IMG/VR virus record: IMGVR_UViG_3300034053_000029
Location: 64,001 to 128,000 of that record
Reading direction: 5' to 3' (one strand)
DNA length: 64,000 nt
Source of the DNA: a virus
Lineage: Duplodnaviria > Caudoviricetes
Shown here: positions 1,089-12,913 of the stretch, in pieces
Layout: each line of letters begins with the position of its first letter
How positions within the stretch are numbered: the first letter of the stretch is position 1
Notes under the pieces: generated by a model
Told to the model about the DNA's origin: nothing
The model's input: only the letters and a program-made list of their open reading frames with translations
Databases searched by the model: none
Made by a program: the position numbers and the translations under genes

Positions 1089-1147
1089 GAATCGAACTCA
1101 TTTGATTAGTTTTGCAGACTAACACCTAACCATTCGGACAACCACTC
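1073..1147 (-). tRNA. tRNA-Cys(GCA)
   Basis: Cloverleaf; anticodon arm TTAGT-CTGCAAA-ACTAA; 3' end reads U73-CCCA. Confidence 0.9.
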
Positions 1148-1160
1148 TCACATAATTACT

Positions 1161-1182
1161 CTAGTCATTCGGCCAACGTCAT
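1161..1182 (-). pseudogene. Possible tRNA 5' fragment (acceptor strand plus D-arm start)
   Basis: ATGACGT-TG-GCCGAATGACTAG resembles the 5' end of the neighbouring tRNA-Cys; no anticodon arm or T-arm follows. Confidence 0.35.
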
Positions 1183-1188
1183 ATTGTT

Positions 1189-1262
1189 TGGAAGGGGTAC
1201 TTGGAATCGAACCAAGTCTAATGCTGTCAAAGAGCATGGTGCAGCCAATACACTTTACCCCT
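1189..1262 (-). tRNA. tRNA-Gln(TTG)
   Basis: ATGCT-CTTTGAC-AGCAT; TTCGATT T-loop; CCA. Confidence 0.92.
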
Positions 1263-1268
1263 ATTGTT

Positions 1269-1342
1269 TGGTGGGTCATGAAGGTACTGCCCCTTCGTCG
1301 ACTGGTTAAAAGCCAGATGTTCTACTATTGAACTAATGACCC
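1269..1342 (-). tRNA. tRNA-Lys(TTT), non-canonical T-loop
   Basis: CTGG-CTTTTAA-CCAG; T-loop GGCAGTA; CCA. Confidence 0.9.
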
Positions 1343-1545
1343 GAAATAGGCGAGTTTCATTTCTCCCTAAAGAAACTAATCCTCGATCTTCACTGTTATT
1401 CCACAGCATGGCAGACTAGCCACTGTTCCAATTAAAAGGGATAATGACAAGCGGAACATAATCTCTAGTTACTCGTCATTATTTTTCGCTCACGATTTTG
1501 CTCTCTACCACAAAGGGAGCGTGGTAGGCGAGGAAGCACCGAAGT
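1343..1545 (-). ncRNA. Candidate structured ncRNA in tRNA spacer
   Basis: Helices ATAATGACGAG/CTTGTCATTAT (G-U pair works only on minus strand) and CTACCAC/GTGGTAG; no credible ORF. Confidence 0.4.
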
Positions 1546-1547
1546 TC

Positions 1548-1628
1548 TTATTTGCTAATATGTACCAATGCCCACAATGCTACGATTGGAGCAATGACCA
1601 ATCCAATTGCTATAATTCCACCGATCAT
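1548..1628 (-). CDS. 26-aa membrane peptide (MIGGIIAIGLVIAPIVALWALVHISK)
   Basis: GGAG SD; single hydrophobic helix; below track cutoff. Confidence 0.6.
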   Translation of the reverse strand: MIGGIIAIGLVIAPIVALWALVHISK

Positions 1629-1637
1629 GTGACTCTC

Positions 1638-1745
1638 CTATCGAAATAGCAGCAATGGAACTGCTGCACTTACCATAAACAATGCGACACCGTGTATCGC
1701 TAACCATAGACTGAATTTTAGTTCATCTACGACTTTATCAATCAC
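1638..1745 (-). CDS. 35-aa membrane peptide (MIDKVVDELKFSLWLAIHGVALFMVSAAVPLLLFR)
   Basis: GTG start with AAGGA SD; overlaps stop of upstream sORF. Confidence 0.55.
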   Translation of the reverse strand: MIDKVVDELKFSLWLAIHGVALFMVSAAVPLLLFR

Positions 1746-1851
1746 GACGTGTATCCTTGATATCACGCATAATCATTGATTCTGCTAGTTGACGATGTGA
1801 GTGTGATTCAAACGTGGAAAGCCACTCTAGAAATTTAATAATTAAAGTCAT
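1738..1851 (-). CDS. 37-aa small protein (MTLIIKFLEWLSTFESHSHRQLAES...)
   Basis: AGGAG SD; follows CATAAATA box at 1875-1882. Confidence 0.6.
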   Translation of the reverse strand: MTLIIKFLEWLSTFESHSHRQLAESMIMRDIKDTRRD

Positions 1852-1874
1852 GTAATGCTCCTAATGAAAGATAA

Positions 1875-1895
1875 TATTTATGCTGCAATGCAGCA
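1875..1895 (-). promoter_or_regulatory. Late-promoter-like CATAAATA abutting the palindrome TGCTGCAATGCAGCA (operator-like)
   Basis: 15-bp inverted repeat with a 1-nt centre at 1881-1895. Confidence 0.55.
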
Positions 1896-1918
1896 CATTT
1901 CTCCTTCTCCAACCCTCA

Positions 1919-2443
1919 TTAGGATTTATTCAAACTAAGTTTCTGCGGCACTTTTAATGACGATTCTATTGCCCTAGAAAGTGGGACTTGTCTAACATAT
2001 TCATTACTTGCTTTGCGGTTATTCCACGGAACAAGATCATATTCTAATATTACGTTACTGTCAAGAACAACAGCACGAGTACAAAGATTATTCATCTGAA
2101 CGTATTTCACCAGAAAGTTATTAGCAAACTTGAATGGGACATTCTTAAATAGCTTTTGTTCTTTTTTCCAAAGACAATCTTTACGTTCAATGCAGTTGAT
2201 CGTTTTAAATGGAAAATCAATATCGCCTTTCCAATTTTCATGTCGCACTTCAACTTCCCATGCAGCAATAACTTTTTTATCAGCATTCAACGATAAAACA
2301 TCTATTCCAAATTTGTTAGGGTTCTCGATATGAAATGGGACATCTGTAATTCTATACTTCAATCTAGCAATCAGTGCATCTTTACCTTTTTTATCCCATT
2401 TATTGTGTTCTTCCTCATCGAATGGTTTTAATGATCCTATCAT
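1919..2443 (-). CDS. PD-(D/E)xK-like nuclease, hypothetical
   Basis: FGIDVL...WEVEVR motif; GAGG SD before ATG 2443; track start 2509 lies inside a tRNA. Confidence 0.55.
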   Translation of the reverse strand: MIGSLKPFDEEEHNKWDKKGKDALIARLKYRITDVPFHIENPNKFGIDVLSLNADKKVIAAWEVEVRHENWKGDIDFPFKTINCIERKDCLWKKEQKLFKNVPFKFANNFLVKYVQMNNLCTRAVVLDSNVILEYDLVPWNNRKASNEYVRQVPLSRAIESSLKVPQKLSLNKS

Positions 2444-2458
2444 ATGATCCTCATAAAA

Positions 2459-2553
2459 TGGTACTCCCGACTGGACTCGAACCAGTATCATCAGCCAATC
2501 TAGCCGCAATGCCGAGGTATAAGCTCGGAGTTTTACCGTTAAACTACAGGAGT
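2459..2553 (-). tRNA. tRNA-Ile(TAT) with long variable arm
   Basis: CCGAG-CTTATAC-CTCGG; 25-nt variable region; A1-U72, A73; CCA. Confidence 0.85.
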
Positions 2554-2565
2554 ATTAAATAAAAC

Positions 2566-2615
2566 TGGATACGCATAGTTGAGTAAAAGTCAATTGTGAT
2601 TGCTGTAGGTATCCA
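2566..2615 (-). ncRNA. Mini tRNA-like element (stem, TACAGCAATCA, anticodon-like hairpin)
   Basis: TGGATAC/GTATCCA closing stem; TTGA-CTTTTAC-TCAA hairpin. Confidence 0.5.
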
Positions 2616-2619
2616 AAAC

Positions 2620-2696
2620 TGGTCGGAGATGAGAGATTCGAACTCCCGACATCTTGCTCCCAAAGCAAGCGGTCTACCAGACTGACCTAATCTCCG
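2620..2696 (-). tRNA. tRNA-Pro(TGG)
   Basis: CTTGC-TTTGGGA-GCAAG; canonical cloverleaf. Confidence 0.95.
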
Positions 2697-2703
2697 ATAA
2701 TGC

Positions 2704-2778
2704 TGGCGCCCCCACACGGAATCGAACCATGAACTAGACTTTAGAAGAGTCCTGTTATATCCATTTAACTATAGGGAC
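2704..2778 (-). tRNA. tRNA-Arg(TCT)
   Basis: GGACT-CTTCTAA-AGTCT; CCA. Confidence 0.95.
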
Positions 2779-2785
2779 GAAATTC

Positions 2786-2864
2786 TGGCTCCGTATCTAG
2801 GGAACGATCCTAGCTAGTCAGTGATTAACAGTCACGCCCATGCACCAAGCTCGGGTTATACGGA
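2786..2864 (-). tRNA. tRNA-Asn(GTT), non-canonical T-loop
   Basis: GTGA-CTGTTAA-TCAC; T-loop ATCGTTC; G73-CCA. Confidence 0.9.
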
Positions 2865-2872
2865 ATTGTTAC

Positions 2873-2946
2873 TGGTGCCTATTGACGGAATCGAACCGCC
2901 ATAACAAGATTACAAATCTAGCGTAATACCATTATACGAAATAGGC
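2873..2946 (-). tRNA. tRNA-Thr(TGT)
   Basis: AGA-TTTGTAA-TCT; CCA. Confidence 0.93.
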
Positions 2947-2953
2947 ATAAAAC

Positions 2954-3026
2954 TGGTTGCGACCACGGGAGTTGAACCCGCTTCCATCTTGGCTTATGAG
3001 GCCAGAGTCTACCACTAGAAGTCGCA
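2954..3026 (-). tRNA. tRNA(CAT), Met or Ile2, truncated D-arm
   Basis: TGGC-CTCATAA-GCCA; D-arm TCTA-GTGG-TAGA with no 8/9 linker; A73-CCA. Confidence 0.8.
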
Positions 3027-3034
3027 ATTAATTA

Positions 3035-3170
3035 AAAGTATCTTGTCTTGGGTTTAAGGACACCATTTAATCCTCCTTACAGGTCTCTAGTAATCATCTA
3101 GCATAGCAAGGATATTGACAGTGACTTTGACAAGCAAGTTCGTTGATTAGACGATTTGTTCCCATACTTA
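3035..3170 (-). ncRNA. Candidate ~135-nt structured RNA
   Basis: AAGTAT/ATACTT closure; ATCCTTGC/GTAAGGA helix; CTAG/CTAG hairpin. Confidence 0.35.
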
Positions 3171-3177
3171 TTTAAAC

Positions 3178-3254
3178 GGAATGACTTTTTGCTCCTTATT
3201 TTTATGTCCGGTAAGCAAACGGACTGCCATTAAATTGATTGCTGTAATCATTCC
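3178..3254 (-). ncRNA. Second mini tRNA-like element (stem, TACAGCAATCA, hairpin)
   Basis: GGAATGA/TCATTCC closing stem; GTCCG/CGGAC hairpin; same 11-mer as 2566-2615. Confidence 0.5.
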
Positions 3255-3259
3255 AAAAC

Positions 3260-3335
3260 TGGTGGAGACGGTCGGAATCAAACCGACCACAGAATCATTG
3301 CAAGTGATTCTCGCCCTCTTGGTACATTCGCCCCC
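3260..3335 (-). tRNA. tRNA-Ala(TGC)
   Basis: AATCA-CTTGCAA-TGATT; G3-U70; A73. Confidence 0.95.
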
Positions 3336-3357
3336 GTTATTTCTGTAACATATGCAT

Positions 3358-3386
3358 AGTATATAGTGTCTGCATATTGAAGTCAA
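3358..3386 (-). promoter_or_regulatory. sigma70-type promoter
   Basis: TTGACT-N17-TATACT. Confidence 0.8.
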
Positions 3387-3393
3387 GTAATTT

Positions 3394-3476
3394 TGGTGGG
3401 ACAGGAGAGATTTGAACTCTCAAGCCGAAGCGTCTGAGCTTAAATCAGATGTGTTTGCCAATTTCACCACAGTCCC
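3394..3476 (-). tRNA. tRNA-Leu(TAA)
   Basis: TCTGA-TTTAAGC-TCAGA; type II variable arm; A73-CCA. Confidence 0.93.
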
Positions 3477-4229
3477 ATGTTCTTTAATTTGTTCAAGAAT
3501 ACCATCCCAATTAAATGATCTCTTATCTGAACTTAGTAATATTATTATGCTAACTCCAAGCTCTATTTCACAAAGATTAATTTTTTGTATTTGTAATTCT
3601 TGTATTTTGATTATTCTTTCGCTTCGTTCATTTGTAGATTTCTTACACCACATACTCTTTGGGTCTAAATAAACATTAAAATCTGGTAAATAAAAATCTG
3701 GTTCATACTTACGACCATCTGACAATACTAGTGGTGTTGGTCTCGACCACACAATTCTATTTTTATCCAATATATTAGCAACTTGCCATTCATGTATAGA
3801 TTCTAAATTAAACTTTAACCCAAATGAATCTATGTAAGGTATATAATTTCTTTTCCACCGTAATGTTGGATTTGCTGCTACTCCAGCTATACTTGGTTTC
3901 CATTTTCCAATGATGAACGATTCGTGTCGAGATTCTATTTGTTTTGATATACTTTGGTGAGTATCTTTTGTGTGCCCTTTACTCCAGTTCATCTTATCCT
4001 TAATTTCTTGAGGTAAGTTTTCATATCTTTGTTTGGCAGGTACTCTGCCACCATTTATATATGATTCTTTCGTACCTTTGCTATTTTTCTCTTTACATTT
4101 CGGACATTGTGTTGATCTAGGACTACACATCAAATTGCCAGATAAGTTTATATATTTTGCAATCTGATTACACCCATAATGACAAAGTTCTGCTGTTATT
4201 ATTTGTTCTGATTTTCTATGTTTTCCCAT
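3420..4229 (-). CDS. Homing-endonuclease-like protein (zinc ribbon plus PD-(D/E)xK); C-terminus read through tRNA-Leu
   Basis: YEPDFYLPDFNVYLDPK motif; GAGG SD before ATG 4229; GATAAATA at 4258-4265. Confidence 0.75.
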   Translation of the reverse strand: MGKHRKSEQIITAELCHYGCNQIAKYINLSGNLMCSPRSTQCPKCKEKNSKGTKESYINGGRVPAKQRYENLPQEIKDKMNWSKGHTKDTHQSISKQIESRHESFIIGKWKPSIAGVAANPTLRWKRNYIPYIDSFGLKFNLESIHEWQVANILDKNRIVWSRPTPLVLSDGRKYEPDFYLPDFNVYLDPKSMWCKKSTNERSERIIKIQELQIQKINLCEIELGVSIIILLSSDKRSFNWDGILEQIKEHGTVVKLANTSDLSSDASA

Positions 4230-4301
4230 TTGTGCCTCGATGATAAATGTATACATATATTTATCATTTTACACTCTTGAGTATACCAATTATTTAAAAT
4301 C

Positions 4302-4375
4302 TGGTACTTCGTGATGGTTATGCTCCACCGTAGCCGCTTTATCAAAACGGTATTCTTCTATTGAATTAACGAAGC
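4302..4375 (-). tRNA. tRNA-Ile(GAT), non-canonical T-loop
   Basis: CCGTT-TTGATAA-AGCGG; T-loop AGCATAA. Confidence 0.88.
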
Positions 4376-4383
4376 ATTATTAC

Positions 4384-4470
4384 TGGAGCAGGAGACAGGA
4401 ATCGAACCTGCTTACGGCTTTCGCCTTACTTGATTGGAAGTCAAGCGCCTAACCAATAGGCTACACCTGC
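4384..4470 (-). tRNA. tRNA-Gly(TCC) with long variable arm
   Basis: CTTGA-CTTCCAA-TCAAG; V-arm GGC-GAAA-GCC; G1-C72, C2-G71, U73. Confidence 0.88.
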
Positions 4471-4477
4471 ATAATTT

Positions 4478-4551
4478 TGGCGAGTCTGTAAGGAATTTAA
4501 CCCTATCCGCCGAGGTTGGAACTCGGAATGCTAACGTAACACTTCAGACCC
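4478..4551 (-). tRNA. tRNA-Trp(CCA)
   Basis: CCGAG-TTCCAAC-CTCGG; G73. Confidence 0.9.
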
Positions 4552-4560
4552 ATATTGTTT

Positions 4561-4632
4561 TGGTGCCCAATGAAGGAGTCGAACCTTCTCAGTCGTGATT
4601 CGTATTCACAACGCCGTTCCGTCGGATTGGAC
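4561..4632 (-). tRNA. tRNA-Arg(ACG), atypical
   Basis: 7-bp anticodon stem GTTGTGA/TCACGAC; loop ATACGAA; D-arm CCG-ACGGAA-CGG with no linker. Confidence 0.75.
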
Positions 4633-4638
4633 TTTATT

Positions 4639-4714
4639 TGGTGCCGCCTCGTGGTTTCGATCCACGCTTTCCACCTTTTCAGGGTAGCACTTTCACCAGA
4701 TTAGTTTAAGCGGC
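4639..4714 (-). tRNA. tRNA-Phe(GAA)
   Basis: CTACC-CTGAAAA-GGTGG; CCA. Confidence 0.92.
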
Positions 4715-4721
4715 AATGATT

Positions 4722-4808
4722 TGGTGCGAGTGACAGGCATCGAACCTGTAAGACCGTTAAGTCGCTGACTTCTAAAGACAGTGTGTTTCCCAATTTCACC
4801 ACACTCGC
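4722..4808 (-). tRNA. tRNA-Leu(TAG)
   Basis: Loop TTTAGAA; type II V-arm; A73. Confidence 0.92.
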
Positions 4809-4818
4809 ATTGTGTTAC

Positions 4819-4915
4819 TGGAGGAAAAGGTGAGATTCGAACTCACGGCCCACGGATGGTTACGGGACGCTGGTTTTCAAGACCAGAGCAATAAACCGGA
4901 CTCTGCCACTTTTCC
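4819..4915 (-). tRNA. tRNA-Ser(TGA)
   Basis: CTGGT-CTTGAAA-ACCAG; long V-arm; U73 rather than the usual G73. Confidence 0.9.
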
Positions 4916-4925
4916 ATTGTGTTAC

Positions 4926-5015
4926 TGGCGGAAGAATGAGGTCACGATCCCCATGCCATATTTCAGGCACCTATCGTTTAGCAAACGATGCTGTCACCTT
5001 GACAATTAATCTTCC
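4926..5015 (-). tRNA. tRNA-Ser(GCT)
   Basis: ATCGT-TTGCTAA-ACGAT; V-arm; T-loop ATCGTGA. Confidence 0.88.
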
Positions 5016-5024
5016 ATTTAATTT

Positions 5025-5100
5025 TGGTCAGAGTGGGGAATTACGATATCCCAACCTCCTGTATCCAAGACAGGCCGTCTTCCTTTGACAATACACTCAG
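5025..5100 (-). tRNA. tRNA-Pro(TGG), second divergent copy
   Basis: CCTGT-CTTGGAT-ACAGG; C1-G72, A73; degenerate T-arm. Confidence 0.8.
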
Positions 5101-5108
5101 ATAATTCT

Positions 5109-5183
5109 TGGTATCGCACTGGGGTTTCGATCCCCACTCACTAGTTTGAAGGACTAGTTGCCACGCCAGCTGCATCGTGCGAT
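5109..5183 (-). tRNA. tRNA-Glu(TTC)
   Basis: CTAGT-CCTTCAA-ACTAG (C33); CCA. Confidence 0.85.
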
Positions 5184-5194
5184 GTATAAATTCT

Positions 5195-5290
5195 TGCTAT
5201 GTCCTTTTGCGAGGACTCTAGTTGTGGCTTGAGAGGCATCGTTCCTAGAATCGAGAGGCACTTCCACCAAACCGTAAAGCGACGGTCTGC
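5195..5290 (-). ncRNA. Candidate pseudoknotted ~95-nt RNA between tRNA-Asp and tRNA-Glu
   Basis: AGACCGT/ACGGTTT, GTGG/CCAC crossing TTCTAG/CTAGAG, GTCCT/AGGAC; TGCCTCTC repeated twice. Confidence 0.4.
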
Positions 5291-5294
5291 ATTT

Positions 5295-5369
5295 TGGCGA
5301 CACGGAAGGGAATCAAACCCTCATAAGTCTCCTAGACAGGGAGATGCATTATCAATCTGCCACCGTGCC
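5295..5369 (-). tRNA. tRNA-Asp(GTC)
   Basis: TCTCC-CTGTCTA-GGAGA; G73. Confidence 0.92.
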
Positions 5370-5375
5370 AAATTT

Positions 5376-5454
5376 TGGGGTGATCGACCAGACTCTCACT
5401 GGCTAATATACTACTTCACAGGTAGTAGGCTCGAATACTTCGCTTTCGATCACC
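5376..5454 (-). tRNA. tRNA-His(GTG)
   Basis: CTAC-CTGTGAA-GTAG; G-1:C73 pair. Confidence 0.9.
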
Positions 5455-5457
5455 ATT

Positions 5458-5820
5458 GAATTCTCTCTCAGATCAAGGGCGTGTCTGAGATTGTGTAATT
5501 TGCCCGACTGCACTAAGGCAGTCTTACACTTTTGAATGATTAAGAGCATTCACGACTCTAATTATTCTTTTGTGGAAGTTAGGAAGTCGTTTCGATGGCG
5601 GGTCATTGGCGCCCTACTTTCCACCGCTAACTTCCACGAATTCTGTGGGGTGTGGATTTTACGAGCTTGCCTAACGCCCCTTTGCTCGATCTACGGGAGT
5701 GATCCAGCCTGCAGTAACCAAATCATCCTATCTTAATTCAAATCTTCTTTAGAATCGACTCACATGAAACAATGTAGGCTGTTGGATGCGCCCCATTTGA
5801 CCGAACCAACTTCGGCTCAT
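5458..5820 (-). ncRNA. Large structured RNA, 3' segment (GOLLD-like)
   Basis: 11-bp helix GTGGAAGTTAG/CTAACTTCCAC; GTGTAA/TTACAC; GACTGC/GCAGTC; CTCAGA/TCTGAG; GGGC/GCCC pseudoknot; GAATTC closure; lies in a tRNA array. Confidence 0.55.
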
Positions 5821-5835
5821 GTAAATCTCAAAAGA

Positions 5836-5912
5836 GATAAATAATAATGCTAGTCACGAAGCGTCAACTTCTACTAGCCCTAGACATTCTAACAACTTGA
5901 AAGGATCAAATT
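5836..5912 (+). promoter_or_regulatory. Late promoter plus conserved structured leader, copy 1
   Basis: GATAAATA; GCTAGT-CAC-GAAG-loop-CTTC-T-ACTAGC; CTAGACATTCTA; AAAGGA SD. Confidence 0.75.
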
Positions 5913-6743
5913 ATGTCCAGCACCAGTATTTATCCATCAACGAAGATCGTTCCTTATGTTTATAAGTTGACTCATAAAGTCACTAAACAATTTTACTTTG
6001 GTGTTAGGTTTAGTAAAAACCAAAAACTACCATCGCACATCGATTTAGGAACACATTATTTCACATCATCGAAATGCATCAAACAACTTGGTTTTGATAA
6101 CTTTGACACCGAAATCCTAGCAGAATTTCCTTTCGACGGCGGAAGAATTGATGCTTACTTACTTGAACAACAATTAATCGAAGAGAACTTCTCAAATTCA
6201 CTCATCTTGAATAAGAACATATCAAAAACCAATAAAGGTTCTTTTTACTTTTGGATGCACAAAGGATCAACTTGTCAAGCAATCTCAGATGCAAACAAAG
6301 GCAGGAAATTAAGAGATTATGATTACAAACATTCGCTAGAAAGTAAAAATAAAATTAGCGAAGGTGTTGGTCGTAAATGTTCTTGCATATTATGCAAAGT
6401 CGAACTATCATCAATTACATCACTTAAATCACACTTCAAAAGTTGTTTTGAAGATTGGGAATCGATGCAGTGTTTATTCCCAAACTTAAATCAAAAGAAA
6501 CATCTCATCAAACCAAAAAGAATTAAGTCGCCCAAAATTATAAAACAAAAGCGAATCAAAAAAGAATTTAACAACTGTTTAGAATGTCAATCTAAAGTAA
6601 ATCGTCGTTCTAAAAAGTTTTGTAATTCGTCTTGTGCAGCAAAATACAACAATAAACTAAGACCCAAAGGGCACGAATCAAGAATAAAAAGCAATGAATC
6701 GAGAATAAACAAATTAAAATCTAGGTGTGCGTCTAATCTCTAG
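5913..6743 (+). CDS. GIY-YIG-like homing endonuclease with C-terminal zinc module
   Basis: PYVYKL...FYFGVR...YFTSSK; CLEC...FCNSSC module. Confidence 0.8.
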   Translation: MSSTSIYPSTKIVPYVYKLTHKVTKQFYFGVRFSKNQKLPSHIDLGTHYFTSSKCIKQLGFDNFDTEILAEFPFDGGRIDAYLLEQQLIEENFSNSLILNKNISKTNKGSFYFWMHKGSTCQAISDANKGRKLRDYDYKHSLESKNKISEGVGRKCSCILCKVELSSITSLKSHFKSCFEDWESMQCLFPNLNQKKHLIKPKRIKSPKIIKQKRIKKEFNNCLECQSKVNRRSKKFCNSSCAAKYNNKLRPKGHESRIKSNESRINKLKSRCASNL

Positions 6744-6768
6744 AAAATAAACACACACCTAAAATTTT

Positions 6769-6990
6769 AACAAGCAGACTTCTTTCCGACAATACTTTCA
6801 CATAATAAGGGACGACTCGAACGTCCATCGTCGGCTTGAGCGCCGATCTGCCTCCCAGCACTTATTCCACTACTGGCATCATCTTCGATCTGTCTTTTGC
6901 TTGTTGATCAGACAAGTGCTTTATCGTTCTTACCCAATCTCAGGCGACCGACTTGAACGGTGCATCGAACTATGTCGCTTCACAGCGAGA
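6769..6990 (-). ncRNA. Large structured RNA, 5' segment, containing a tRNA-like domain
   Basis: TCGC-TGTGAA-GCGA; CCG-TTCAAGT-CGG T-loop hairpin; AACAAGCA/TGCTTGTT closing 6769-6905; T-arm GGACG-TTCGAGT-CGTCC. Confidence 0.55.
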
Positions 6991-6995
6991 TATTT

Positions 6996-7086
6996 TGGTG
7001 GGGCATGGACGGAATCGAACCTCTTGCCTAGAAGGACTGCGTTTACAGCGCAGCGGCGACACCAGTCTGCCCTTATTGCACACCCC
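6996..7086 (-). tRNA. tRNA-Tyr(GTA), enlarged D-arm
   Basis: CTGCG-CTGTAAA-CGCAG; V-arm; A73-CCA. Confidence 0.88.
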
Positions 7087-7094
7087 AAATTTAT

Positions 7095-7498
7095 TAGCGG
7101 AGAAGTACCATCTTCTCCTTTCACCTGTACTCAGGATCACCTTTTGGGCGTGACATTAACTGTTTGGTAATGTTGCCTCAGTGGATACCAACCACCTTAC
7201 TAGAGGTTACAGTAGCATTGTCTACTCAACAATAACAGTCAAATTTATTACGCACTCTTTTGAATGCGGATTGTTAAGTATTCTTGAAAGAATCGAACTT
7301 TCGTCCTACCCGCCCCCTGCCGGAAAGCCTCAGACACCATTTAAGAACACTTAACAATCGGTGGCTCGATCACTCACACCACCTGATGTTTTCGATCTAT
7401 CTCCCACGATAGCTTCTCAACACCCTCCGACTTTTCACACCATGTTTTAAGTGCGGTGCCTGGCCTCGTTACCAGATAACTTAACACACTCTGCTACT
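7095..7498 (-). ncRNA. ~400-nt structured RNA of unknown class at the head of the tRNA operon
   Basis: 17-bp helix 7269-7359 enclosing T-arm GAAAG-TTCGATT-CTTTC; terminal GGAGAAG/CTTCTCC; no credible minus-strand ORF. Confidence 0.55.
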
Positions 7499-7506
7499 GA
7501 GACTAC

Positions 7507-7535
7507 ATTTTATTCTACTTCTGAAACCTTGTCAA
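7507..7535 (-). promoter_or_regulatory. sigma70-type promoter for the RNA operon
   Basis: TTGACA-N17-TAAAAT. Confidence 0.8.
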
Positions 7536-7648
7536 TAACTATTTTGGTACTTCTCTTTCCGTTTGAAGGAACCCTTACCCTTCTTGGAACCAACAACACG
7601 CATCCGGTACTTTGGAGTGCGAAGGTCTTTAGCGATTGGGTTTTTCAT
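7532..7648 (-). CDS. arfA: ArfA-like alternative ribosome-rescue factor (38 aa)
   Basis: KYRMRV...KKGKGSFKRK matches the ArfA KGKGS core; start re-called at ATG 7648. Confidence 0.7.
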   Translation of the reverse strand: MKNPIAKDLRTPKYRMRVVGSKKGKGSFKRKEKYQNSY

Positions 7649-7649
7649 T

Positions 7650-7766
7650 TTACTTACCTTTAGCAAAAAGTGTATAACCAGAAACCCGTTGCAACACAAC
7701 CACCGCAAGCATATTATTAACACATTTCCACTCACGATGCACAGGATTAAAAACGTAGTATTTCAT
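7650..7766 (-). CDS. 38-aa hypothetical (MKYYVFNPVHREWKCV...)
   Basis: GAGG SD; TTGACG-N16-TAAAAT upstream at 7804-7831. Confidence 0.55.
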   Translation of the reverse strand: MKYYVFNPVHREWKCVNNMLAVVVLQRVSGYTLFAKGK

Positions 7767-7856
7767 TTCCGTATTCCTCTTGTTGCGTCATTCGATGGAA
7801 CGAATTTTACTCTCTTTTAAACTTTCGTCAACTACTTTCGTAAGTGACTGATTTAC

Positions 7857-7890
7857 AAAAGAAAAACCCGAAACTTTTTGGGTTTCGGGT
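7857..7890 (-). terminator. Rho-independent terminator
   Basis: ACCCGAAAC/GTTTCGGGT hairpin followed by TTTTTCTTTT. Confidence 0.8.
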
Positions 7891-7949
7891 CATCTTTGGT
7901 GCCACATTTTTTACTTTTAAGATGACCCTACATACAATCTCCCTGCTCG

Positions 7950-8040
7950 GAATACGCACGACCAAAGAGACTAACTGGCATTGGATTATGCCATAAGTTA
8001 GTTCTAATTGTAGTGGGTATGCGTTTCATTGGTCTTTTTA
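7950..8040 (-). ncRNA. Candidate pseudoknotted RNA after a CATAAATA box (8079-8086)
   Basis: GACCAA/TTGGTC enclosing ACTAAC/GTTAGT and TGGCAT/ATGCCA; loop ACGCAT pairs with downstream GTGCGT. Confidence 0.45.
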
Positions 8041-8122
8041 TTCCTAAAAATTTATATGATTCTATTATACTTATATGGTATTTATGTAAATTGGGATTTC
8101 TCTTACAAACTGTTACAACTCT

Positions 8123-8307
8123 GGATGGAGTTCGTGATATAACCCGCACTACAGGGAATGTCTTTCACATTCAGTCATTGGCGACTTTTACCAATTAGCA
8201 GATAGTCTTTCCTACCAGTCAACCGTCTTTCCAGTTTGTCATCCACTTTTAGGATTTCTCCCTACTTATGATATTAGAATGTCTTTTTATTTTTGCAGAA
8301 TCCATCC
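8123..8307 (-). ncRNA. Candidate ~185-nt late structured RNA
   Basis: GGATGG/CCATCC closure; ACTG-GAAAGA-CGGT and GAATGT-GAAAG-ACATTC hairpins; exact TATAAATA at 8315-8322. Confidence 0.5.
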
Positions 8308-8330
8308 AATTGTTTATTTATACTACCTGA

Positions 8331-8549
8331 TTACTTGAGAACTGCAGACTTCATTCCACGATGACCACGCCAATGAATCTTTGCATTACCTGCCTTGGTG
8401 TATTCTACCTTGGAAACAGTTACGGTGCGTGGAAGATGAAGTTTCTCCTGAGTGCCGTTATCGTTAATGCGAGTTCCTGCAGGAATCATAACCTTTGATC
8501 CTTCGGAAATCATTGACTTGATGGTTTGGGTGGTTTGTGTTGTCTTCAT
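8331..8549 (-). CDS. Hypothetical protein
   Basis: AAAGG SD; 72-aa ORF on the main coding strand. Confidence 0.7.
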   Translation of the reverse strand: MKTTQTTQTIKSMISEGSKVMIPAGTRINDNGTQEKLHLPRTVTVSKVEYTKAGNAKIHWRGHRGMKSAVLK

Positions 8550-9003: not shown

Positions 9004-9288
9004 TTATCCTAGCCTAGATGACAAATCAAGACCAGATGTTTGTTGCAGATATGCAGTTTCAATTTGAAGTGGCGCTTCGATCTTAGTGACGATTGCGCCA
9101 ATAGCAATACTGACGGTTTCATCTGGTGCTGACATGATGTATGGAACTAGTGCTGCTCCCATACCTTGTTGGGTTTGCATCATTTGGAACACACGAGGCT
9201 TTTCATAAACCATACCAAACACTTCTCCAACCTCTCGTGCGATTACTTCCTCGCCGCTAACCAACTTAATAACAACTATATCACTCAT
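9004..9288 (-). CDS. T4-like conserved small Sm-like-fold protein
   Basis: VIKLVSGEEVIA N-terminus typical of T4-like phage ORFs. Confidence 0.75.
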   Translation of the reverse strand: MSDIVVIKLVSGEEVIAREVGEVFGMVYEKPRVFQMMQTQQGMGAALVPYIMSAPDETVSIAIGAIVTKIEAPLQIETAYLQQTSGLDLSSRLG

Positions 9289-10231
9289 TTATAATCCTTT
9301 CAATATCTAAAATACATTTTTGTTTTTCGGCATTCGCCATTGAGAGGATTTCTTTTGACCACGAAAATCCATCCAACATTTTTACTTTCGATAGTATATC
9401 TGCACCACTAGAAACAATCAAGTCTTTCGGGAAAATATTTTCATAACCAGAAAGCGTTAATGTGTTTAGACAATCAGCATCAAATAGAAGAGGAACATTA
9501 CTATTCAATGCTTCATAGAATCGATTCGCAAGACAGCTATAATCAGTATGCGTTGTCTTATCTTCAATATACAACGACGCTGCATATTTTGTCAATCCAC
9601 CAGAAAGAATATCTAGTCTAGGGATGAATCTAGAATTTACTCCAATTTCCCTAAATTTGTCGATGTTCTTTTGGTGCGTCGATGTTATGCAAGATGGAAG
9701 ATACTTAACAAACGACTCGGCACGATCTTTTCGATAAGCTCCATAGTAGCAGCACCACTTAATTTTATCATCAAAGAAATCGCTCAGAAAGCTAGATTGG
9801 AATGTTGAAGTCAAATTCGGATCAAAAATTAACGCATTCAAATTTGTCACTTCCCACCTATCAATCCACTTGGTGTTTGCCTTTAATGAATACTCCATCT
9901 TGTGATTTGCAATCACGGTATATTTCTTGTCTGCCTCTTTGACGTAAGCCCACAACAACATCGACTCACCTAGCACATAGTCATTACTCAAGAAGAATAA
10001 CTTTGCATTGGGACTATTCTTTACCCAATCGGTACTAACAAAAGAATATGCGCTTGAATGACAAAATATGATTACATCATAATCCGATTTTATATTATCG
10101 TTGACCGTTGGGTATGACCAGATCAAATCTCCACCAAAATGATCGGCAAGTATTTTGGCATTTTGCCAATGCAATGATACCTGTGGATTGCTGTTACTCG
10201 ATTTATGAGAATCTATAATTAATATTTTCAA
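9281..10231 (-). CDS. GT-B glycosyltransferase resembling T4 beta-glucosyltransferase
   Basis: MKILII N-terminus; YYGAYRKDR and NRFYEAL..NVPLLFD resemble BGT motifs as I recall them. Confidence 0.6.
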   Translation of the reverse strand: MKILIIDSHKSSNSNPQVSLHWQNAKILADHFGGDLIWSYPTVNDNIKSDYDVIIFCHSSAYSFVSTDWVKNSPNAKLFFLSNDYVLGESMLLWAYVKEADKKYTVIANHKMEYSLKANTKWIDRWEVTNLNALIFDPNLTSTFQSSFLSDFFDDKIKWCCYYGAYRKDRAESFVKYLPSCITSTHQKNIDKFREIGVNSRFIPRLDILSGGLTKYAASLYIEDKTTHTDYSCLANRFYEALNSNVPLLFDADCLNTLTLSGYENIFPKDLIVSSGADILSKVKMLDGFSWSKEILSMANAEKQKCILDIERIINE

Positions 10232-10872
10232 ACTGAACCTTTCAAGTGCTTTGAAATTTCGTTATACCGTTGAGCAACCTTTTGATCATACCCGTTTGGT
10301 GCAGCATTCGATCCATTGTAACATAACAAGGCAGAACTTGTCGACTTGAACTTGGAAAGACAATCCTTCAAGACCCATGACCCCAAGTAAATGTTCGTAT
10401 GGATATCAAATAATTCTGGAGTTCCAATATCCTTGATTGCTGCCTTTAGCTTTGACAGATGCCATGATGGAATGACTTGCATCACTCCCAAGGCACCTGC
10501 ACCACTAATGCTATGCTTATTGAACGTGGATTCGACCTCTTGAACTGCTAGAACCAGACGGTAATCGACACCAAACTCTTCAGACCACTTGAGACTAGAC
10601 TTTGCAATTTGAATTGCGTCAGCATCATCGATCTTCTGATTTTTATTTTTAATGTAGTCTACCACCTTTTGCGTCGTTGTTTTTTGATAAAATCCTGCAG
10701 CCTCTATCGCTTGATTATACATATGACTTGAGGTCTCTTGGGTGACACTTGTACCACCAATAAACACACCAATCAGCATACCAATCTTGATGCCACGCAG
10801 AAACTTGTTCTTTAATACATACTTGCCATTTTTAAAGTAATACTCTCCCAACGATGGAATCGTTGTTCCCAT
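10228..10872 (-). CDS. Lytic transglycosylase (SLT domain) with N-terminal membrane anchor
   Basis: VQEVESTFN...SGAGALGVMQV...NIYLG..L..YN. Confidence 0.9.
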   Translation of the reverse strand: MGTTIPSLGEYYFKNGKYVLKNKFLRGIKIGMLIGVFIGGTSVTQETSSHMYNQAIEAAGFYQKTTTQKVVDYIKNKNQKIDDADAIQIAKSSLKWSEEFGVDYRLVLAVQEVESTFNKHSISGAGALGVMQVIPSWHLSKLKAAIKDIGTPELFDIHTNIYLGSWVLKDCLSKFKSTSSALLCYNGSNAAPNGYDQKVAQRYNEISKHLKGSV

Positions 10873-10882
10873 TTTACTTCTC

Positions 10883-11086
10883 CTATCGAATGATTACTCC
10901 GACTTCTGGATCAAATTGGATTTTTGCAGGTACAAGAGTACCGTTTCCATCGTCCATCAAAACATTGGGTGGTTCAAATCCAGAACCAACTTCTAAGCGC
11001 CCATTCGCCTTAGCCCATACAAAGTAATCGTAGTTAATTTGCTGAAGTTCCTTGATAAAGGAATCCAGAGATATACTATTTAGCAT
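10883..11086 (-). CDS. Hypothetical protein
   Basis: 67-aa ORF coupled to neighbours. Confidence 0.6.
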   Translation of the reverse strand: MLNSISLDSFIKELQQINYDYFVWAKANGRLEVGSGFEPPNVLMDDGNGTLVPAKIQFDPEVGVIIR

Positions 11087-11648
11087 TATGAATTCCCCAA
11101 CTTAGTGCTTGATTATAGAATGAACGAACCGACTTGTCAATGATAGCGATGTTTTCGTATATCATATTCTTTTGGATTTCACGAATCCTCTCGGAAAATG
11201 TCGTACAAATTGCCGCCTCTGCTAGTGCAGTCTCATGGTCATTCACGATACGCATACCCAATTTCTTAGCAATGGTTTGCATGGGTTTGTTATCTCGCAA
11301 ACACTCCATAACTAGCTTAGTGACACCTGATGCCTTGCACCAAGTGATAATACGCTTCATTAGATCGACACCTAGACCTTTGCCCTTATATTCATCAGAA
11401 ACTGACATACCAAGTTCATATTGGTCGGAATCGACTTTACCTAGATGAACGAAGGCAACTAGATTTGCTCCAGAGAAACACCCAAAACACACATCACCAT
11501 TCCATCGAATACGCTCGACATAAGATTCGATTCCAACATTGGTAATATTGGAAAAGAATCGTAGTCTACGGTCATCCTCATTGAGAGCAAACAAATGATC
11601 TAGAATTTGATGATCATTGGTTTCATTCAATTCACAAATTGGTAGCAT
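11076..11648 (-). CDS. GNAT-family acetyltransferase
   Basis: RRLRFF; ELGMSVSDEYKGKGLG motif A; DNKPM. Confidence 0.85.
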   Translation of the reverse strand: MLPICELNETNDHQILDHLFALNEDDRRLRFFSNITNVGIESYVERIRWNGDVCFGCFSGANLVAFVHLGKVDSDQYELGMSVSDEYKGKGLGVDLMKRIITWCKASGVTKLVMECLRDNKPMQTIAKKLGMRIVNDHETALAEAAICTTFSERIREIQKNMIYENIAIIDKSVRSFYNQALSWGIHNAK

Positions 11649-11655
11649 ATATGTC

Positions 11656-11889
11656 CTATGAATATTTTAATAGTAAAAGTATAAAGGCATTTTCTTCCAT
11701 TTCAAACCAATCGTCGCCAGAAAGTTCGGCTCGATATGAATTGGATGGTCTCGGCATCGTCTTCGCATTATGTTCGGTGATGAACATCTGCCAAGGAGAT
11801 TCATAACCAGCGGCAATATATCCTTGGACAATTACATCTTTGAACTTCTCCGGAAGATGCTCTTGCCAACAACGAATAATATTAGCCAT
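11656..11889 (-). CDS. Hypothetical protein
   Basis: 77-aa ORF, coupled. Confidence 0.65.
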   Translation of the reverse strand: MANIIRCWQEHLPEKFKDVIVQGYIAAGYESPWQMFITEHNAKTMPRPSNSYRAELSGDDWFEMEENAFILLLLKYS

Positions 11890-12913
11890 CGTTTTTCAAG
11901 AGCCAACTATTACTGATTGCCTTGAATGAAGTCGATCCATCAACCGCTTTGAACACTACTCCCTCACGAGACTTTGCATTCAGTGATGGGCCTTCTGCAT
12001 ACTTTAGAATGTCATCGACCGTATTCAATTCAAGATCAGACAATCGATCAAAGTTAGCAAGGATAGGAACGTGCTTCAATCCAAATTGCTTACATAATTC
12101 TTGTCTACGAGCAGTTGACAGATATTCACATTCAACTGGATCATATATGTCAAATACATACAGGTCTTGTCCCTTGATCCCTTCCTTGTTTCCTTGGACA
12201 CCTTCACCAATCAATTCGCCACTGATTTGAATTGGTCGACCATACGCCTTCAGTTGTTCTTCCAAGTTATATTTCTTGCATACTTGAACAAACGAATTAC
12301 CTTCCTGATCCGTCTTGAGATTCATATTACGACTACAAACGGTGTAAGTCAGGTCGTTGACCAATCCAACAGAGCAAGATGATCCATCGAGTTTGATCGT
12401 GACTTCATACTCATGCTGCTTCAAGTAATAGAATTCTTTGTTAGAAAATCCTTGGATGCGCTCTTGATCGGTCTTGCGCCACTCGGACGGGAAATTACCA
12501 CGAACCGTTCCAGATAGACAAGCAGCAATTGGTGCTTCCCACTTTTGAATACGCAGTTCATCGGTAACATCTTCACCTTCAACAAAGATAGGAGATAGTG
12601 CATGATCTACCAATAATTCAATTGGTAGAATCAAACCTTGACTGATCTGACCACGCAGTTTTACTGTACGAAGACGCTCGCCCTTCACTCCGTTGTATTC
12701 TCTTGGGAAAGCACCTTTCGACAAGAACGGAGCAAGTTCAGTAGGAACCCAAGAATCGATTTCCAGATAGATAACCAGATCACCGATATTGAACTCACCA
12801 CGCTTGACAACAACCCACCAAGAATTGATCTGCGCTTTTTCAATTGCGTCTGCCCCCTCGATAGGTTGAATATCTACGATCTTTTGAATGGATGCTAGTT
12901 TACGTTCAGTCAT
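11882..12913 (-). CDS. RNA ligase, Rnl2/DRB0094-type, with N-terminal OB fold
   Basis: KLDGSS motif I; ISGELIG; EGVVFK; FKAIS. Confidence 0.9.
   Translation of the reverse strand: MTERKLASIQKIVDIQPIEGADAIEKAQINSWWVVVKRGEFNIGDLVIYLEIDSWVPTELAPFLSKGAFPREYNGVKGERLRTVKLRGQISQGLILPIELLVDHALSPIFVEGEDVTDELRIQKWEAPIAACLSGTVRGNFPSEWRKTDQERIQGFSNKEFYYLKQHEYEVTIKLDGSSCSVGLVNDLTYTVCSRNMNLKTDQEGNSFVQVCKKYNLEEQLKAYGRPIQISGELIGEGVQGNKEGIKGQDLYVFDIYDPVECEYLSTARRQELCKQFGLKHVPILANFDRLSDLELNTVDDILKYAEGPSLNAKSREGVVFKAVDGSTSFKAISNSWLLKNDG

Follow-up and report, generated by a model that had tools for sequence, protein, structure and literature searches.

The genomes of large and giant phages encode dozens of tRNAs. 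What stands at the head of such an array is the question raised by a tract of ~415 nt in the window (the whole 64-kb stretch of phage DNA analyzed here), which runs gene-free along the minus strand from a promoter to an aberrant tRNA-Tyr. An earlier note had read this tract as one ~400-nt structured RNA, possibly a new class or the 5′ half of a giant RNA spanning tRNA-Tyr. We find that the RNA is real and folded and that the tract is two units, a 240-nt conserved RNA followed by a 144-nt lineage-specific element, instead of a single RNA. The first unit (7490-7251, minus strand, ~240 nt) is, with high confidence in membership and fold jointly, a divergent representative of a large pseudoknotted leader-RNA family missing from Rfam 15. 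More than a hundred uncultivated large phages carry this family at the start of their main tRNA array, usually ahead of every tRNA. The features of the locus, in the direction of transcription, are as follows.

7648-7532, minus strand: ArfA-like ORF of 38 aa (Pfam PF03889, 33.5 bits versus a cut-off of 25.5)
7535-7507, minus strand: sigma70-type promoter TTGACA-N17-TAAAAT (−35 TTGACA at 7535-7530, −10 TAAAAT at 7512-7507)
7490-7485, minus strand: 5′ strand of the P1 pseudoknot, AGUGUG, pairing with CGCACU at 7455-7450 in the P3 loop
7487-7372, minus strand: conserved 5′ domain of the leader RNA, positions 1-116 of the covariance model R1 (40 bits)
7476-7459, minus strand: P2 hairpin CUGG/CCAG; its 7-nt loop, AACGAGG at 7470-7464, is invariant
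7458-7438, minus strand: P3 hairpin CACC/GGUG, whose 13-nt loop GCACUUAAAACAU also holds the 3′ strand of P1
7437-7424, minus strand: joint J3/4, UGAAAAGUCGGAGG, divergent from the family's RAAYGGGCGG
7423-7385, minus strand: arm of P4, internal loop and P5, both helices present and aligned by R1
7383-7360, minus strand: additional hairpin, GGUGG-(14 nt)-CCACC, separating P4 from P6; found in the window only
7359-7269, minus strand: P6 rod of 17 bp, 7359-7343 with 7285-7269, including one G-U pair
7268-7251, minus strand: P7 hairpin CGCAUUC-AAAA-GAGUGCG (family form CRCAUUC-N4-GAGUGYG)
7250-7241, minus strand: AU-rich spacer TAATAAATTT; such a spacer precedes the first tRNA in relatives
7240-7097, minus strand: 144-nt lineage-specific folded element in the 'tRNA slot' (MFE −39.3 kcal/mol)
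7096-7087, minus strand: second copy of the spacer TAATAAATTT, between the 144-nt element and tRNA-Tyr
7086-6996, minus strand: aberrant tRNA-Tyr(GUA) with CCA, the first recognizable tRNA of the array

The promoter was described correctly in the earlier note. It matches 11 of 12 consensus positions, is the top promoter-like site within 5000-8500 and predicts a transcription start for the leader at ~7500 on the minus strand. The ArfA-like ORF lies directly upstream, with its stop codon overlapping the −35 box; its homologs are 36-43 aa long and ~80% identical. At the equivalent place after arfA, loci L061 and L062 carry TTGACA...TATAAT. The genes near the leader, ArfA and an RNA ligase, share a translation-rescue/repair theme. 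From 7500 to 7086, the minus strand contains no ORF longer than 37 aa, as the reading of an ORF-free tract implied. The many helices ascribed to it are also borne out: the MFE of 7500-7086 is −131.7 kcal/mol compared to −107.6 ± 5.0 for dinucleotide shuffles (z = −4.85), and none of 100 shuffles reached this stability.

Relatives' loci were gathered through an ArfA alignment, and a search of IMG/VR with a degenerate core pattern matched at least 120 contigs, of which at least 116 are true family members among the matches listed. RNAalifold on the raw MAFFT alignment gave P2 only; a hand-drawn structure and realignment to a covariance model were needed. The model, R1, was trained on other phages only, with the window left out. 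It matched the window over its full length (model positions 1-116) at 7487-7372 with 40 bits and an E value of 1.2e-9, and this was the single match both in the 64-kb window and in the whole 210-kb phage genome. Among non-redundant listed members, R1 detected all 83 tested with scores of 40-128 bits, the window's copy being the lowest. R1 is also specific: only 3 of 80 pattern matches from prokaryote genomes scored, and 75 other ArfA loci gave no match. In GenBank phages, blastn likewise detected no match to the family core, and R1 reached no more than 4 bits in the T7 early region (1-2000). Structural conservation, whose absence the earlier note would have counted against the RNA, was found, with strong covariation: 90.9% of cells in the alignment are paired, whereas shuffles reach 56.3% and slid controls 30-45%, and 580 cells are changed on both sides versus 169 in shuffles. 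Exactly one family copy is present in each of six large phage genomes, and the core letters are kept among phages whose DNA polymerases are just 28-31% identical.

The family does not correspond to a catalogued RNA. Rfam 15, searched with gathering cut-offs and at E ≤ 10, returned nothing for the window's RNA or for a canonical member (L144:430-670). The suggestion of a new class is thus supported for the 5′ 240 nt: the covarying family to which they belong occurs on at least 116 IMG/VR contigs and is unmatched in Rfam. RNase P RNA and tmRNA, whose signatures had been noted as lacking, were likewise without an Rfam match at E ≤ 10, and ARAGORN found no tmRNA at the leader; an ARAGORN 'tmRNA' near 5240-5860 appears only at the 80% threshold, lies elsewhere than the leader and was dismissed as implausible. 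The Rfam model of the bacterial Y RNA YrlA did not match the window's leader. When the window's 415 nt were compared with GenBank phages by blastn and nhmmer, the leader part was unmatched, the sole match being 60 nt that Sinorhizobium phage Phosso shares with the tRNA-Tyr half; against the ArfA loci, the same searches matched tRNA-Tyr and nothing else. An IMG/VR search for identical 26-mers of the T-arm region and of tRNA-Tyr gave no match, and close relatives of the neighboring protein at 9281-10231 are absent from that collection. All DNA-polymerase relatives are at most 41% identical, except for one 190-residue end fragment at 48%, and the window's phage is therefore without near kin in the collection. 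We found no published description of the leader family; Fremin et al. 2023 (PMC10690425) list 8,495 unnamed candidate RNAs from IMG/VR, with which the family may overlap.

From 5′ to 3′, the family fold comprises the P1 pseudoknot, P2, P3, a purine-rich joint, the P4/P5 arm, the P6 rod, P7 and an AU-rich spacer. P1 has six pairs in the window, one of them G-U. At least five complementary nucleotides are present in 88 of 97 listed members, and variant loops change together with the tails (AGUG/CACU, ACGUG/CACGU, GGUGG/CCACC, GAUG/CAUC, CUUGGG/CCCAAG and ACCUGA/UCAGGU). P2 (helix 1) is paired in 98% of cells with a variable closing pair (AU 43, UA 22, GC 13 and CG 3), and the window's loop fits the family consensus AACGAGR. 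An SD-like reading of the GAGG(U) in this loop was rejected, as the next base covaries as the closing pair. P3 (helix 2) is 92% paired, and five of five pairs are changed on both sides; its family loop GCACUUUAAACAU (GCACU-NN-AAACAU) falls under a broader consensus, xCACU-NN-AAAYAW, to which the window's GCACUUAAAACAU conforms. Guanidine-II-like ACGR loops were considered and discarded because the loop sizes are unsuitable. A resemblance of GUGCUUUAAUACA to boxA was also set aside: the word forms part of a covarying helix, and several subclasses lack it. Because the boxA-like GCUUUAAUA sits within a covarying helix, NusB/NusE could not bind it as single-stranded RNA.

In the window's copy, the near-invariant J3/4 motif RAAYGGGCGK is replaced by GAAAAGUCGGAG. 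P4 and P5 (helices 4 and 5) are 89% paired across the family, and their internal loop reads GAGAAG/AUCGAAAACA in the window versus GAUGGA (GAUGRA)/GAAAAAU in the family. The J3/4 divergence marks the window's copy as a divergent subtype, while its other features and the R1 score keep it in the family. Having lost the RAAYGGGCGG and GAUGGA/GAAAAAU letters, this copy may function in another way or be in decay.

The P6 rod of canonical members begins 83-90 nt past the P2 loop, compared to +109 in the window, where it is displaced by the 24-nt extra hairpin. P6 has a median of 16 bp in 99 listed members, with compensatory variants. The 17-bp stem and perfect T-arm reported previously are exact: 7359-7343 pairs with 7285-7269 around a 57-nt tRNA-like tip (7342-7286), and the canonical T-arm GAAAG-UUCGAUU-CUUUC (7302-7286) forms the last 17 nt of the tip and abuts the 3′ strand of P6. 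As a hallmark, however, the T-arm junction did not survive comparison. A T-loop motif occurs in the P6 tip of just 13 of 99 listed members, so the module is a decoration and not part of the core; the P6 tip of L151 holds a 207-aa ORF. With its canonical T-arm stacked on a helix, the tip resembles tRNA modules (T-arm plus acceptor minihelix), and a tRNA-size clover of 72-74 nt can be drawn on it, its 8-bp acceptor stem having a G-U as the third pair. In this clover (7350-7277), the D stem has ~2 pairs and the anticodon stem three U-G pairs; ARAGORN calls it 'tRNA-Ala(ggc)' solely at the 80% threshold (-ps80), and the Rfam tRNA model gave no match at E ≤ 10. We rejected the tip as a tRNA because, despite the T-arm, the D and anticodon arms are degenerate, Rfam does not match it and CCA is absent; the stem runs on for 17 bp and thus leaves no free CCA end.

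The P7 motif follows P6 in ~64 of 99 listed members and includes compensatory variants. The window's P7 is 1 nt from that of L187 and differs by one loop nucleotide from the corresponding 18 nt of L250. The family pattern of a P6 of at least 14 bp with P7 immediately after is thereby present in the window. The claim that 6769-6905 shares this architecture stands for the general look, a closing stem with a T-arm; since the window has one R1 match, 6769-6905 is not a second family copy.

Downstream of P7, the 144-nt element combines hairpins with a 90-nt part that resembles a clover and bears a non-canonical T-like arm. Rfam gave no match to it, and blastn against ~380 loci found no significant relatives (one 24-nt match, E 0.08). 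The tRNA-Tyr that follows reaches just 25.6 bits with the Rfam tRNA-Sec model and is missed by ARAGORN at default settings; the tRNA-Tyr that follows arfA in L060-L063 is a homolog of it. Could the tract and the downstream elements be one giant RNA of at least 500 nt spanning tRNA-Tyr? The leader, the 144-nt insert, tRNA-Tyr and the T-arm elements down to 6769 do adjoin, with no terminator between them. In the relatives, however, the RNA ends at P7 and is followed by the AU-rich spacer and then by an element that varies (tRNA-Tyr, Cys, Gln, Ile, Ala or an ORF). In the window, the boundaries between units are marked by the repeated spacer TAATAAATTT, which brackets the unrelated 144-nt insert; neither this insert nor 6769-6996 has a counterpart in relatives. 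A GOLLD or ROOL match is also absent. We therefore consider this already disfavored reading extremely unlikely. It is also very improbable that the tract is a non-functional leader of decayed tRNA genes and chance hairpins, a reading conceivable for 7240-7097 and disfavored for 7490-7251. The P6 tip and the 144-nt element do resemble degenerate tRNAs, and the window's copy is the most divergent family member. Yet covariation and invariant loops persist across phages with ~30% polymerase identity, and a model that never saw the window recovered it at E 1e-9.

The position of the family relative to tRNA genes was examined across the listed loci. A same-strand tRNA lies downstream in 104 of 105 (median distance 218 nt), with a median of 10 tRNAs within 4 kb, whereas a tRNA within 1 kb upstream was found in just 12 of 81. 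The 210-kb genome of the window has no tRNA upstream of the leader; the 6.4 kb downstream contain 14 Rfam tRNAs and tRNA-Tyr, and a further tRNA is found ~16 kb beyond those. In genome G001, 26 of 27 tRNAs are downstream of the family RNA, while G003 is a counterexample with eight tRNAs upstream. The head position is constant whether a sigma70 promoter, an intrinsic terminator (within ~60 nt upstream in 19 of 77 listed loci) or a small ORF lies upstream, and it is kept where an HNH or radical-SAM gene is inserted before the first tRNA. An ORF instead of a tRNA follows the family RNA in ~20 listed loci. With the promoter kept in L061 and L062 and the family preceding the tRNA array, the idea of a promoter-driven RNA leading a tRNA operon is supported.

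Because this single-copy head position is held across loci and upstream contexts, the leader may act in cis as an operon-head element, a proposal that we regard as evenly balanced. Our working model is a processive antiterminator of the put/EAR/nut type. The leader would fold as soon as it is transcribed, just behind the promoter or an upstream attenuator terminator. Once folded, it would condition RNA polymerase or the nascent transcript, and transcription would then carry through many kilobases of untranslated, hairpin-rich tRNA genes. Antitermination specifically, proposed from the position of the leader, is a tentative assignment that we think rather less probable than its opposite. The explanation as a whole, a knotted family member combined with cis operon-head or antiterminator action, is the best we have, and we place it somewhat short of an even chance.

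The leader shares several properties with put (HK022 putL and putR), the Bacillus EAR element and the lambda and rrn nut sites (boxA-boxB), all of which are promoter-proximal, cis-encoded and folded, with one per long unit. EAR is roughly 120 nt long and pseudoknotted. The rrn operons are, like tRNA arrays, long untranslated operons and are targets of antitermination. The leader differs from these elements in its architecture, an H-type knot with an embedded hairpin followed by a rod and a hairpin, and it showed no Rfam-level or sequence similarity (E ≤ 10) to known families, antiterminator RNAs included; the comparison is a working analogy and not a claim of membership. Phage tRNA regions also encode other non-tRNA RNAs. 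T4 species 1 and 2 (rnaC and rnaD) are stable RNAs of unknown function in the tRNA cluster (PMC9697503). They resemble the leader as tRNA-cluster RNAs of a T4-type phage that are co-transcribed with tRNAs, and rnaC has a T-arm-like GGUUCGAAUCC near its 3′ end. Unlike the leader, they sit at the 3′ end of the cluster, measure 119-139 nt and are without the pseudoknot core; R1 found no match in the T4 tRNA region 69000-75000. GOLLD and ROOL are phage and prophage RNAs of unknown function that are often near tRNA islands and can embed tRNAs (PMC12286853). They are 600-800 nt long compared to ~240 nt for the leader, which has a fixed head-of-array position. Searches with cmscan for GOLLD (RF02032) and ROOL gave no match at E ≤ 10 in 5300-8100 or in L144:430-670. 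Locus L144 carries GOLLD and the leader RNA together: a true GOLLD (201.7 bits) with an embedded tRNA lies 1.4 kb from the family member, inside the array after four tRNAs.

The main rival to action in cis is a trans-acting stable non-coding RNA. It would be released from its polycistronic precursor through RNase P cleavage at the first tRNA, or through RNase E or RNase III cleavage within the spacer or P6. The product would accumulate as a folded particle and act on the translation or tRNA machinery or on host defense, as assumed for RNAC/RNAD, GOLLD and ROOL. The compact closed fold with its many invariant unpaired purines suggests a specific partner, and the AU-rich spacer and tRNA after P7 in most loci would define a 3′ end. 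A single copy per genome suffices for a trans product, phage tRNA regions are known for stable RNAs (T4 RNAC/RNAD, PMC9697503; GOLLD/ROOL, PMC12286853), and the neighboring ArfA and RNA ligase genes, with their rescue and repair theme, would suit such a role. A trans product need not come first in an operon, however, and the head position is seen in more than 85% of listed loci; moreover, where an ORF follows, as in ~20 listed loci, RNase P cannot set the 3′ end of the leader. We consider action in trans possible but on balance doubtful. Could the leader instead serve in processing or stability, its knot blocking 5′-end-dependent or 5′-to-3′ decay of the tRNA precursor and its P6 duplex offering an RNase III-type entry site to release the tip content, here the tRNA-like clover? 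In the window, the pseudoknot locks the 5′ tail ~10 nt away from the predicted start, and the near-perfect P6 of 16-17 bp tolerates T-arm modules or even the 207-aa ORF of L151 in its tip. Against such a scaffold, the transcript of many loci must begin far upstream (~210 nt in L061 and L062, or before the attenuator terminator), which places the element away from the physical 5′ end; ~40 invariant loop nucleotides are needless for a simple stabilizer, and at 16-17 bp the P6 duplex is short by the standards of RNase III. This role is improbable. A riboswitch, in which the 116-nt knotted 5′ domain would bind a small molecule or tRNA as an aptamer and gate expression of the array, is also quite unlikely. 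The H-type pseudoknot, the conserved joints, the place in a 5′ leader and the covarying stems around invariant unpaired bases are aptamer-like, and a protein gene (radical SAM or HNH) occasionally lies downstream. Yet these downstream ORFs resemble mobile insertions and not a regulon, and no expression platform was recognized, P7 being followed by GUGUGUU(A/U)A without a U-tract. Conservation also extends to P6 and P7, which follow the aptamer-like part, and expression platforms are not usually conserved in this way; a search for covarying alternative pairing found none. A switch through pairing of the 5′ tail with the 5′ strand of P7 was specifically rejected, as it shows no covariation in L061, L200 or L238.

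Whichever function applies, the leader RNA is a testable handle on the transcription, protection and regulation of long untranslated tRNA arrays, and for annotation the family accounts for a recurrent 'empty' gap in phage genomes. If the leader modifies RNA polymerase, it would be a new class of antiterminator with applications in synthetic operons. If, instead, it works in trans as a particle, it would join T4 RNAC/RNAD, GOLLD and ROOL among the unexplained RNAs tied to phage tRNA islands; unlike these, it has a small well-defined fold that suits structure work. A more ambitious reading, which we put forward as speculative and unlikely on present evidence, is that of a new RNA class gating or sustaining whole phage tRNA arrays of 10-60 genes. 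Such a class could work on host RNA polymerase as a factor-independent antiterminator, or it could sense the state of the translation apparatus. It would be common to very distantly related large phages whose hosts are probably freshwater Bacteroidota, and its P6 rod would be a cargo slot open to insertions, into which tRNA-like modules and even a gene have been taken.

The window encodes a divergent representative of a family of leader RNAs that is widespread, well supported and found at the head of phage tRNA arrays. Its source genome (210 kb, complete, with direct terminal repeats in IMG/VR, of which the window covers 64001-128000) is that of a T4-like phage carrying a family-B DNA polymerase (PHROG 262, E 5e-281), an rIIA homologue, a ribonucleotide reductase and an SbcC-like nuclease; the polymerase shares at most 41–43% full-length identity with those of GenBank and IMG/VR phages. 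Because the 14-tRNA array at 1073-5369 and nearly all genes lie on the minus strand, the finding is read on that strand. Two of the tRNAs, tRNA-Ile(UAU) (2459-2553, minus, 95 nt) and tRNA-Gly(UCC) (4384-4470, minus, 87 nt), are of unusual length for class I, apparently through long variable arms. Upstream of the operon, 10228-12913 (minus) encodes an SLT transglycosylase, a GNAT acetyltransferase and an Rnl2-type RNA ligase (PF09414 with a PHA02142 OB domain), which together with an ArfA homologue gives a translation or RNA-repair theme.

Features of the tract and its neighbor
7648-7532, minus: ArfA-like ORF of 38 aa, homologue of an alternative ribosome-rescue factor (Pfam PF03889, 33.5 bits)
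7535-7507, minus: predicted sigma70-type promoter TTGACA-N17-TAAAAT (11/12 consensus matches)
7086-6996, minus: aberrant tRNA-Tyr(GUA) at the 3' end of the tract (Rfam: tRNA-Sec model only, 25.6 bits)
5913-6743, plus: antisense homing-endonuclease ORF

The ArfA-like ORF has its own stop codon and ends within the -35 box of the tRNA-operon promoter. An earlier note had proposed that this promoter fires into an ORF-free tract encoding a structured RNA of ~400 nt, and the following ~415 bases indeed contain no minus-strand ORF longer than 37 aa and fold far more stably than shuffled sequences (z = -4.85). No Rfam covariance model matched the tract at E ≤ 10. The tRNA-Tyr was missed by ARAGORN at default settings; across 60 nt of its 3' half it matches Sinorhizobium jumbo phage Phosso at 92% identity. 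Further T-arm-bearing, tRNA-like non-canonical elements lie at 6769-6996 (minus), between tRNA-Tyr and the homing-endonuclease ORF, where ARAGORN at -ps80 draws 6801-6868 as a tRNA with a 6-nt anticodon loop.

Direct DNA searches of GenBank phages and IMG/VR with the tract or its parts found no relatives of the leader RNA, and blastn against 50,697 GenBank phage records gave no match to it. Relatives were reached by aligning short ArfA homologues and fetching 80 IMG/VR loci, five of which (L060-L063 and L066) preserve the arrangement arfA, gap, tRNA-Tyr, tRNA array. The gaps of these loci and the window share a hairpin loop AACGAGG, a second hairpin (loop CACUNNAAACAUG) with a stem that varies from locus to locus but pairs in all of them, and a third word, AAACGGGCG. 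A degenerate pattern built from the common words matched at least 120 IMG/VR contigs (~16 expected by chance, by our own estimate), and all but four of the matches listed were obvious family members. ArfA versions of 36-43 aa occur in many phage contigs; their pairing with the leader RNA was found only in the window and these five close kin. In the nearest kin, ~200 nt of extra conserved structured sequence with GGGAUUC...GAAUCCC stems, absent from the window, separates the arfA-proximal promoter from the leader RNA (L061:4140-4360, L062:4140-4320).

A covariance model of the family's 5' domain, R1 (116 positions, 22 pairs), was built from 63 non-redundant members; neither the window nor L060-L062, its nearest kin, contributed to it. 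R1 matched the window over the full model length at 7487-7372 (40 bits, E 1.2e-9), and the 210-kb genome, the window included, holds no other match. In an 83-sequence alignment, which was fitted to R1 and is therefore biased towards structure, 90.9% of cells held standard pairs versus 56.3% in shuffles and 30–45% when partners were slid by 1-3 columns. Both sides had changed in 580 cells (169 in shuffles), with compensatory change at 21 of the 22 pairs. The effect size and the slid controls leave little doubt that the covarying structure is real. The suggestion of a new class is thus supported: Rfam 15 has no such family, we found no paper describing it, and it is apparently undescribed so far. 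PMC10690425 reports 8,495 unnamed candidate RNAs from IMG/VR, and the family may be hidden among them.

The fold opens with the P1 pseudoknot, in which the 5' tail (AGUG...) pairs with the first bases of the P3 loop (...CACU). At least five complementary bases are present in 88 of 97 members, and rare P3-loop variants co-vary with their tails (ACGUG/CACGU, GGUGG/CCACC, GAUG/CAUC, CUUGGG/CCCAAG, ACCUGA/UCAGGU and UGUGG/CCACA). Nearly all members have P6, a long rod (median 16 bp) that shows compensatory sequence variants and ends in a tip of variable length and content. In most, the P7 hairpin CRCAUUC-N4-GAGUGYG comes next, with an AU-rich spacer after it.

The window copy has canonical P1, P2 and P3 and the lowest R1 score among the 83 members. 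Its divergent joint GAAAAGUCGGAG replaces the family's RAAYGGGCGG, the P4/P5 loop letters diverge, and an additional 24-nt hairpin precedes P6; its P7 is one base off those of loci L187 and L250. Two features singled out in the earlier note hold exactly: the 17-bp stem (7359-7343 with 7285-7269) is P6, and the junction with the perfect T-arm (7302-7286) is its tip. The tip is tRNA-sized, but the Rfam tRNA model rejects it and ARAGORN draws a poor tRNA-Ala-like clover only at the 80% threshold. Because only 13 of 99 tips contain the T-loop motif and one locus, L151, appears to have an ORF there, the tip is insertion-tolerant periphery, not family core. The L151 ORF (207 aa, ~105-760 nt past the P2 loop) appears to be situated within the tip, just past the conserved P6 5' strand; a matching 3' strand was not located.

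After P7 come the spacer TAATAAATTT, a 144-nt folded element, the same spacer again and tRNA-Tyr. Since the spacer is repeated around an element without relatives in any search made (Rfam included), the ~400-nt tract consists of the conserved leader RNA (240 nt) and, in a 'tRNA slot', a lineage-specific insert. It is not a single RNA, and the conjecture that it forms the true 5' half of one giant RNA running across tRNA-Tyr is not supported.

Of 105 loci whose downstream sequence was long enough, 104 have a tRNA on the same strand after the RNA. The median distance from the P2 loop to this tRNA, most commonly Tyr (34 loci), is 218 nt, and the 4 kb that follow hold a median of ten tRNAs; a tRNA lies within 1 kb upstream in only 12 of 81. 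Six large phage genomes (210-417 kb) carry one copy each, with 26 of 27 tRNAs downstream in one (G001) and 19 downstream and 8 upstream in another (G003). The giant-phage polymerases are only 28-31% identical to that of the window phage, so the invariant RNA letters are strongly constrained or move with the arrays. R1 found no match in the T4 tRNA region, the T7 early region, 75 other ArfA loci or the T-arm elements of 6769-6996. Among 185,579 prokaryotic species genomes it scored only 3 of 80 pattern matches (L265, L266 and L280), all three in Bacteroidota bins (Haliscomenobacter, Cryomorphaceae and an uncultured Bacteroidetes). These are probably phage contigs whose binning hints at phage hosts, and the family is essentially phage-specific.

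Upstream contexts differ. The window and about 10-14 of 77 loci have a sigma70-type promoter, 19 of 77 have a strong intrinsic terminator within ~60 nt, and others have the end of a small conserved ORF, marked by its stop codon. The terminator, itself conserved (ACCCYNGG...CUAAAAAC...CCNRGGGUUUUUU; L147, L166, L179, L192, L200, L219, L226 and L228, among others), lies 10-60 nt upstream, leaving no space for a sigma70 promoter. Elsewhere it is followed by a conserved ~57-aa ORF (MKxIDYxKLNERIVEQAYE...KFERA...) without a Pfam match, ending 17-26 nt before the leader RNA. In ~20 loci an HNH endonuclease, radical-SAM gene or other ORF separates the RNA from the first tRNA, and the RNA remains at the head; inserts directly after P7 in some loci are HNH (PF14279) or zinc-finger endonuclease-like ORFs or a radical-SAM gene.

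The strongest clue to function is this head position, kept across unrelated phages and differing upstream contexts. A trans-acting product could occupy any array position, as do T4 RNAC and RNAD at the 3' end of their array and GOLLD after four tRNAs inside that of locus L144, whereas the leader RNA stays at the head; a putative stable RNA acting in trans is the main rival, less likely than a role in cis. (The L144 GOLLD is genuine, at 1864-2326 with 201.7 bits and an embedded tRNA at 1927-1998, 1.2 kb downstream of the leader RNA at 430-670.) A riboswitch is improbable, because P7 has no U-tract and a search for an alternative covarying pairing found none; a putative processing or stability scaffold seems unlikely.

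In bacteria and phages, long, untranslated, hairpin-rich operons are served by leader-encoded processive antitermination, as with rrn nut-like sites, HK022 put and Bacillus EAR. This precedent and the fixed position favor a candidate cis-acting element at the operon head, to which we would give about an even chance. More tentatively, the leader RNA may be a processive antiterminator for the long, untranslated, hairpin-rich tRNA operon. Its mechanism is directly testable.
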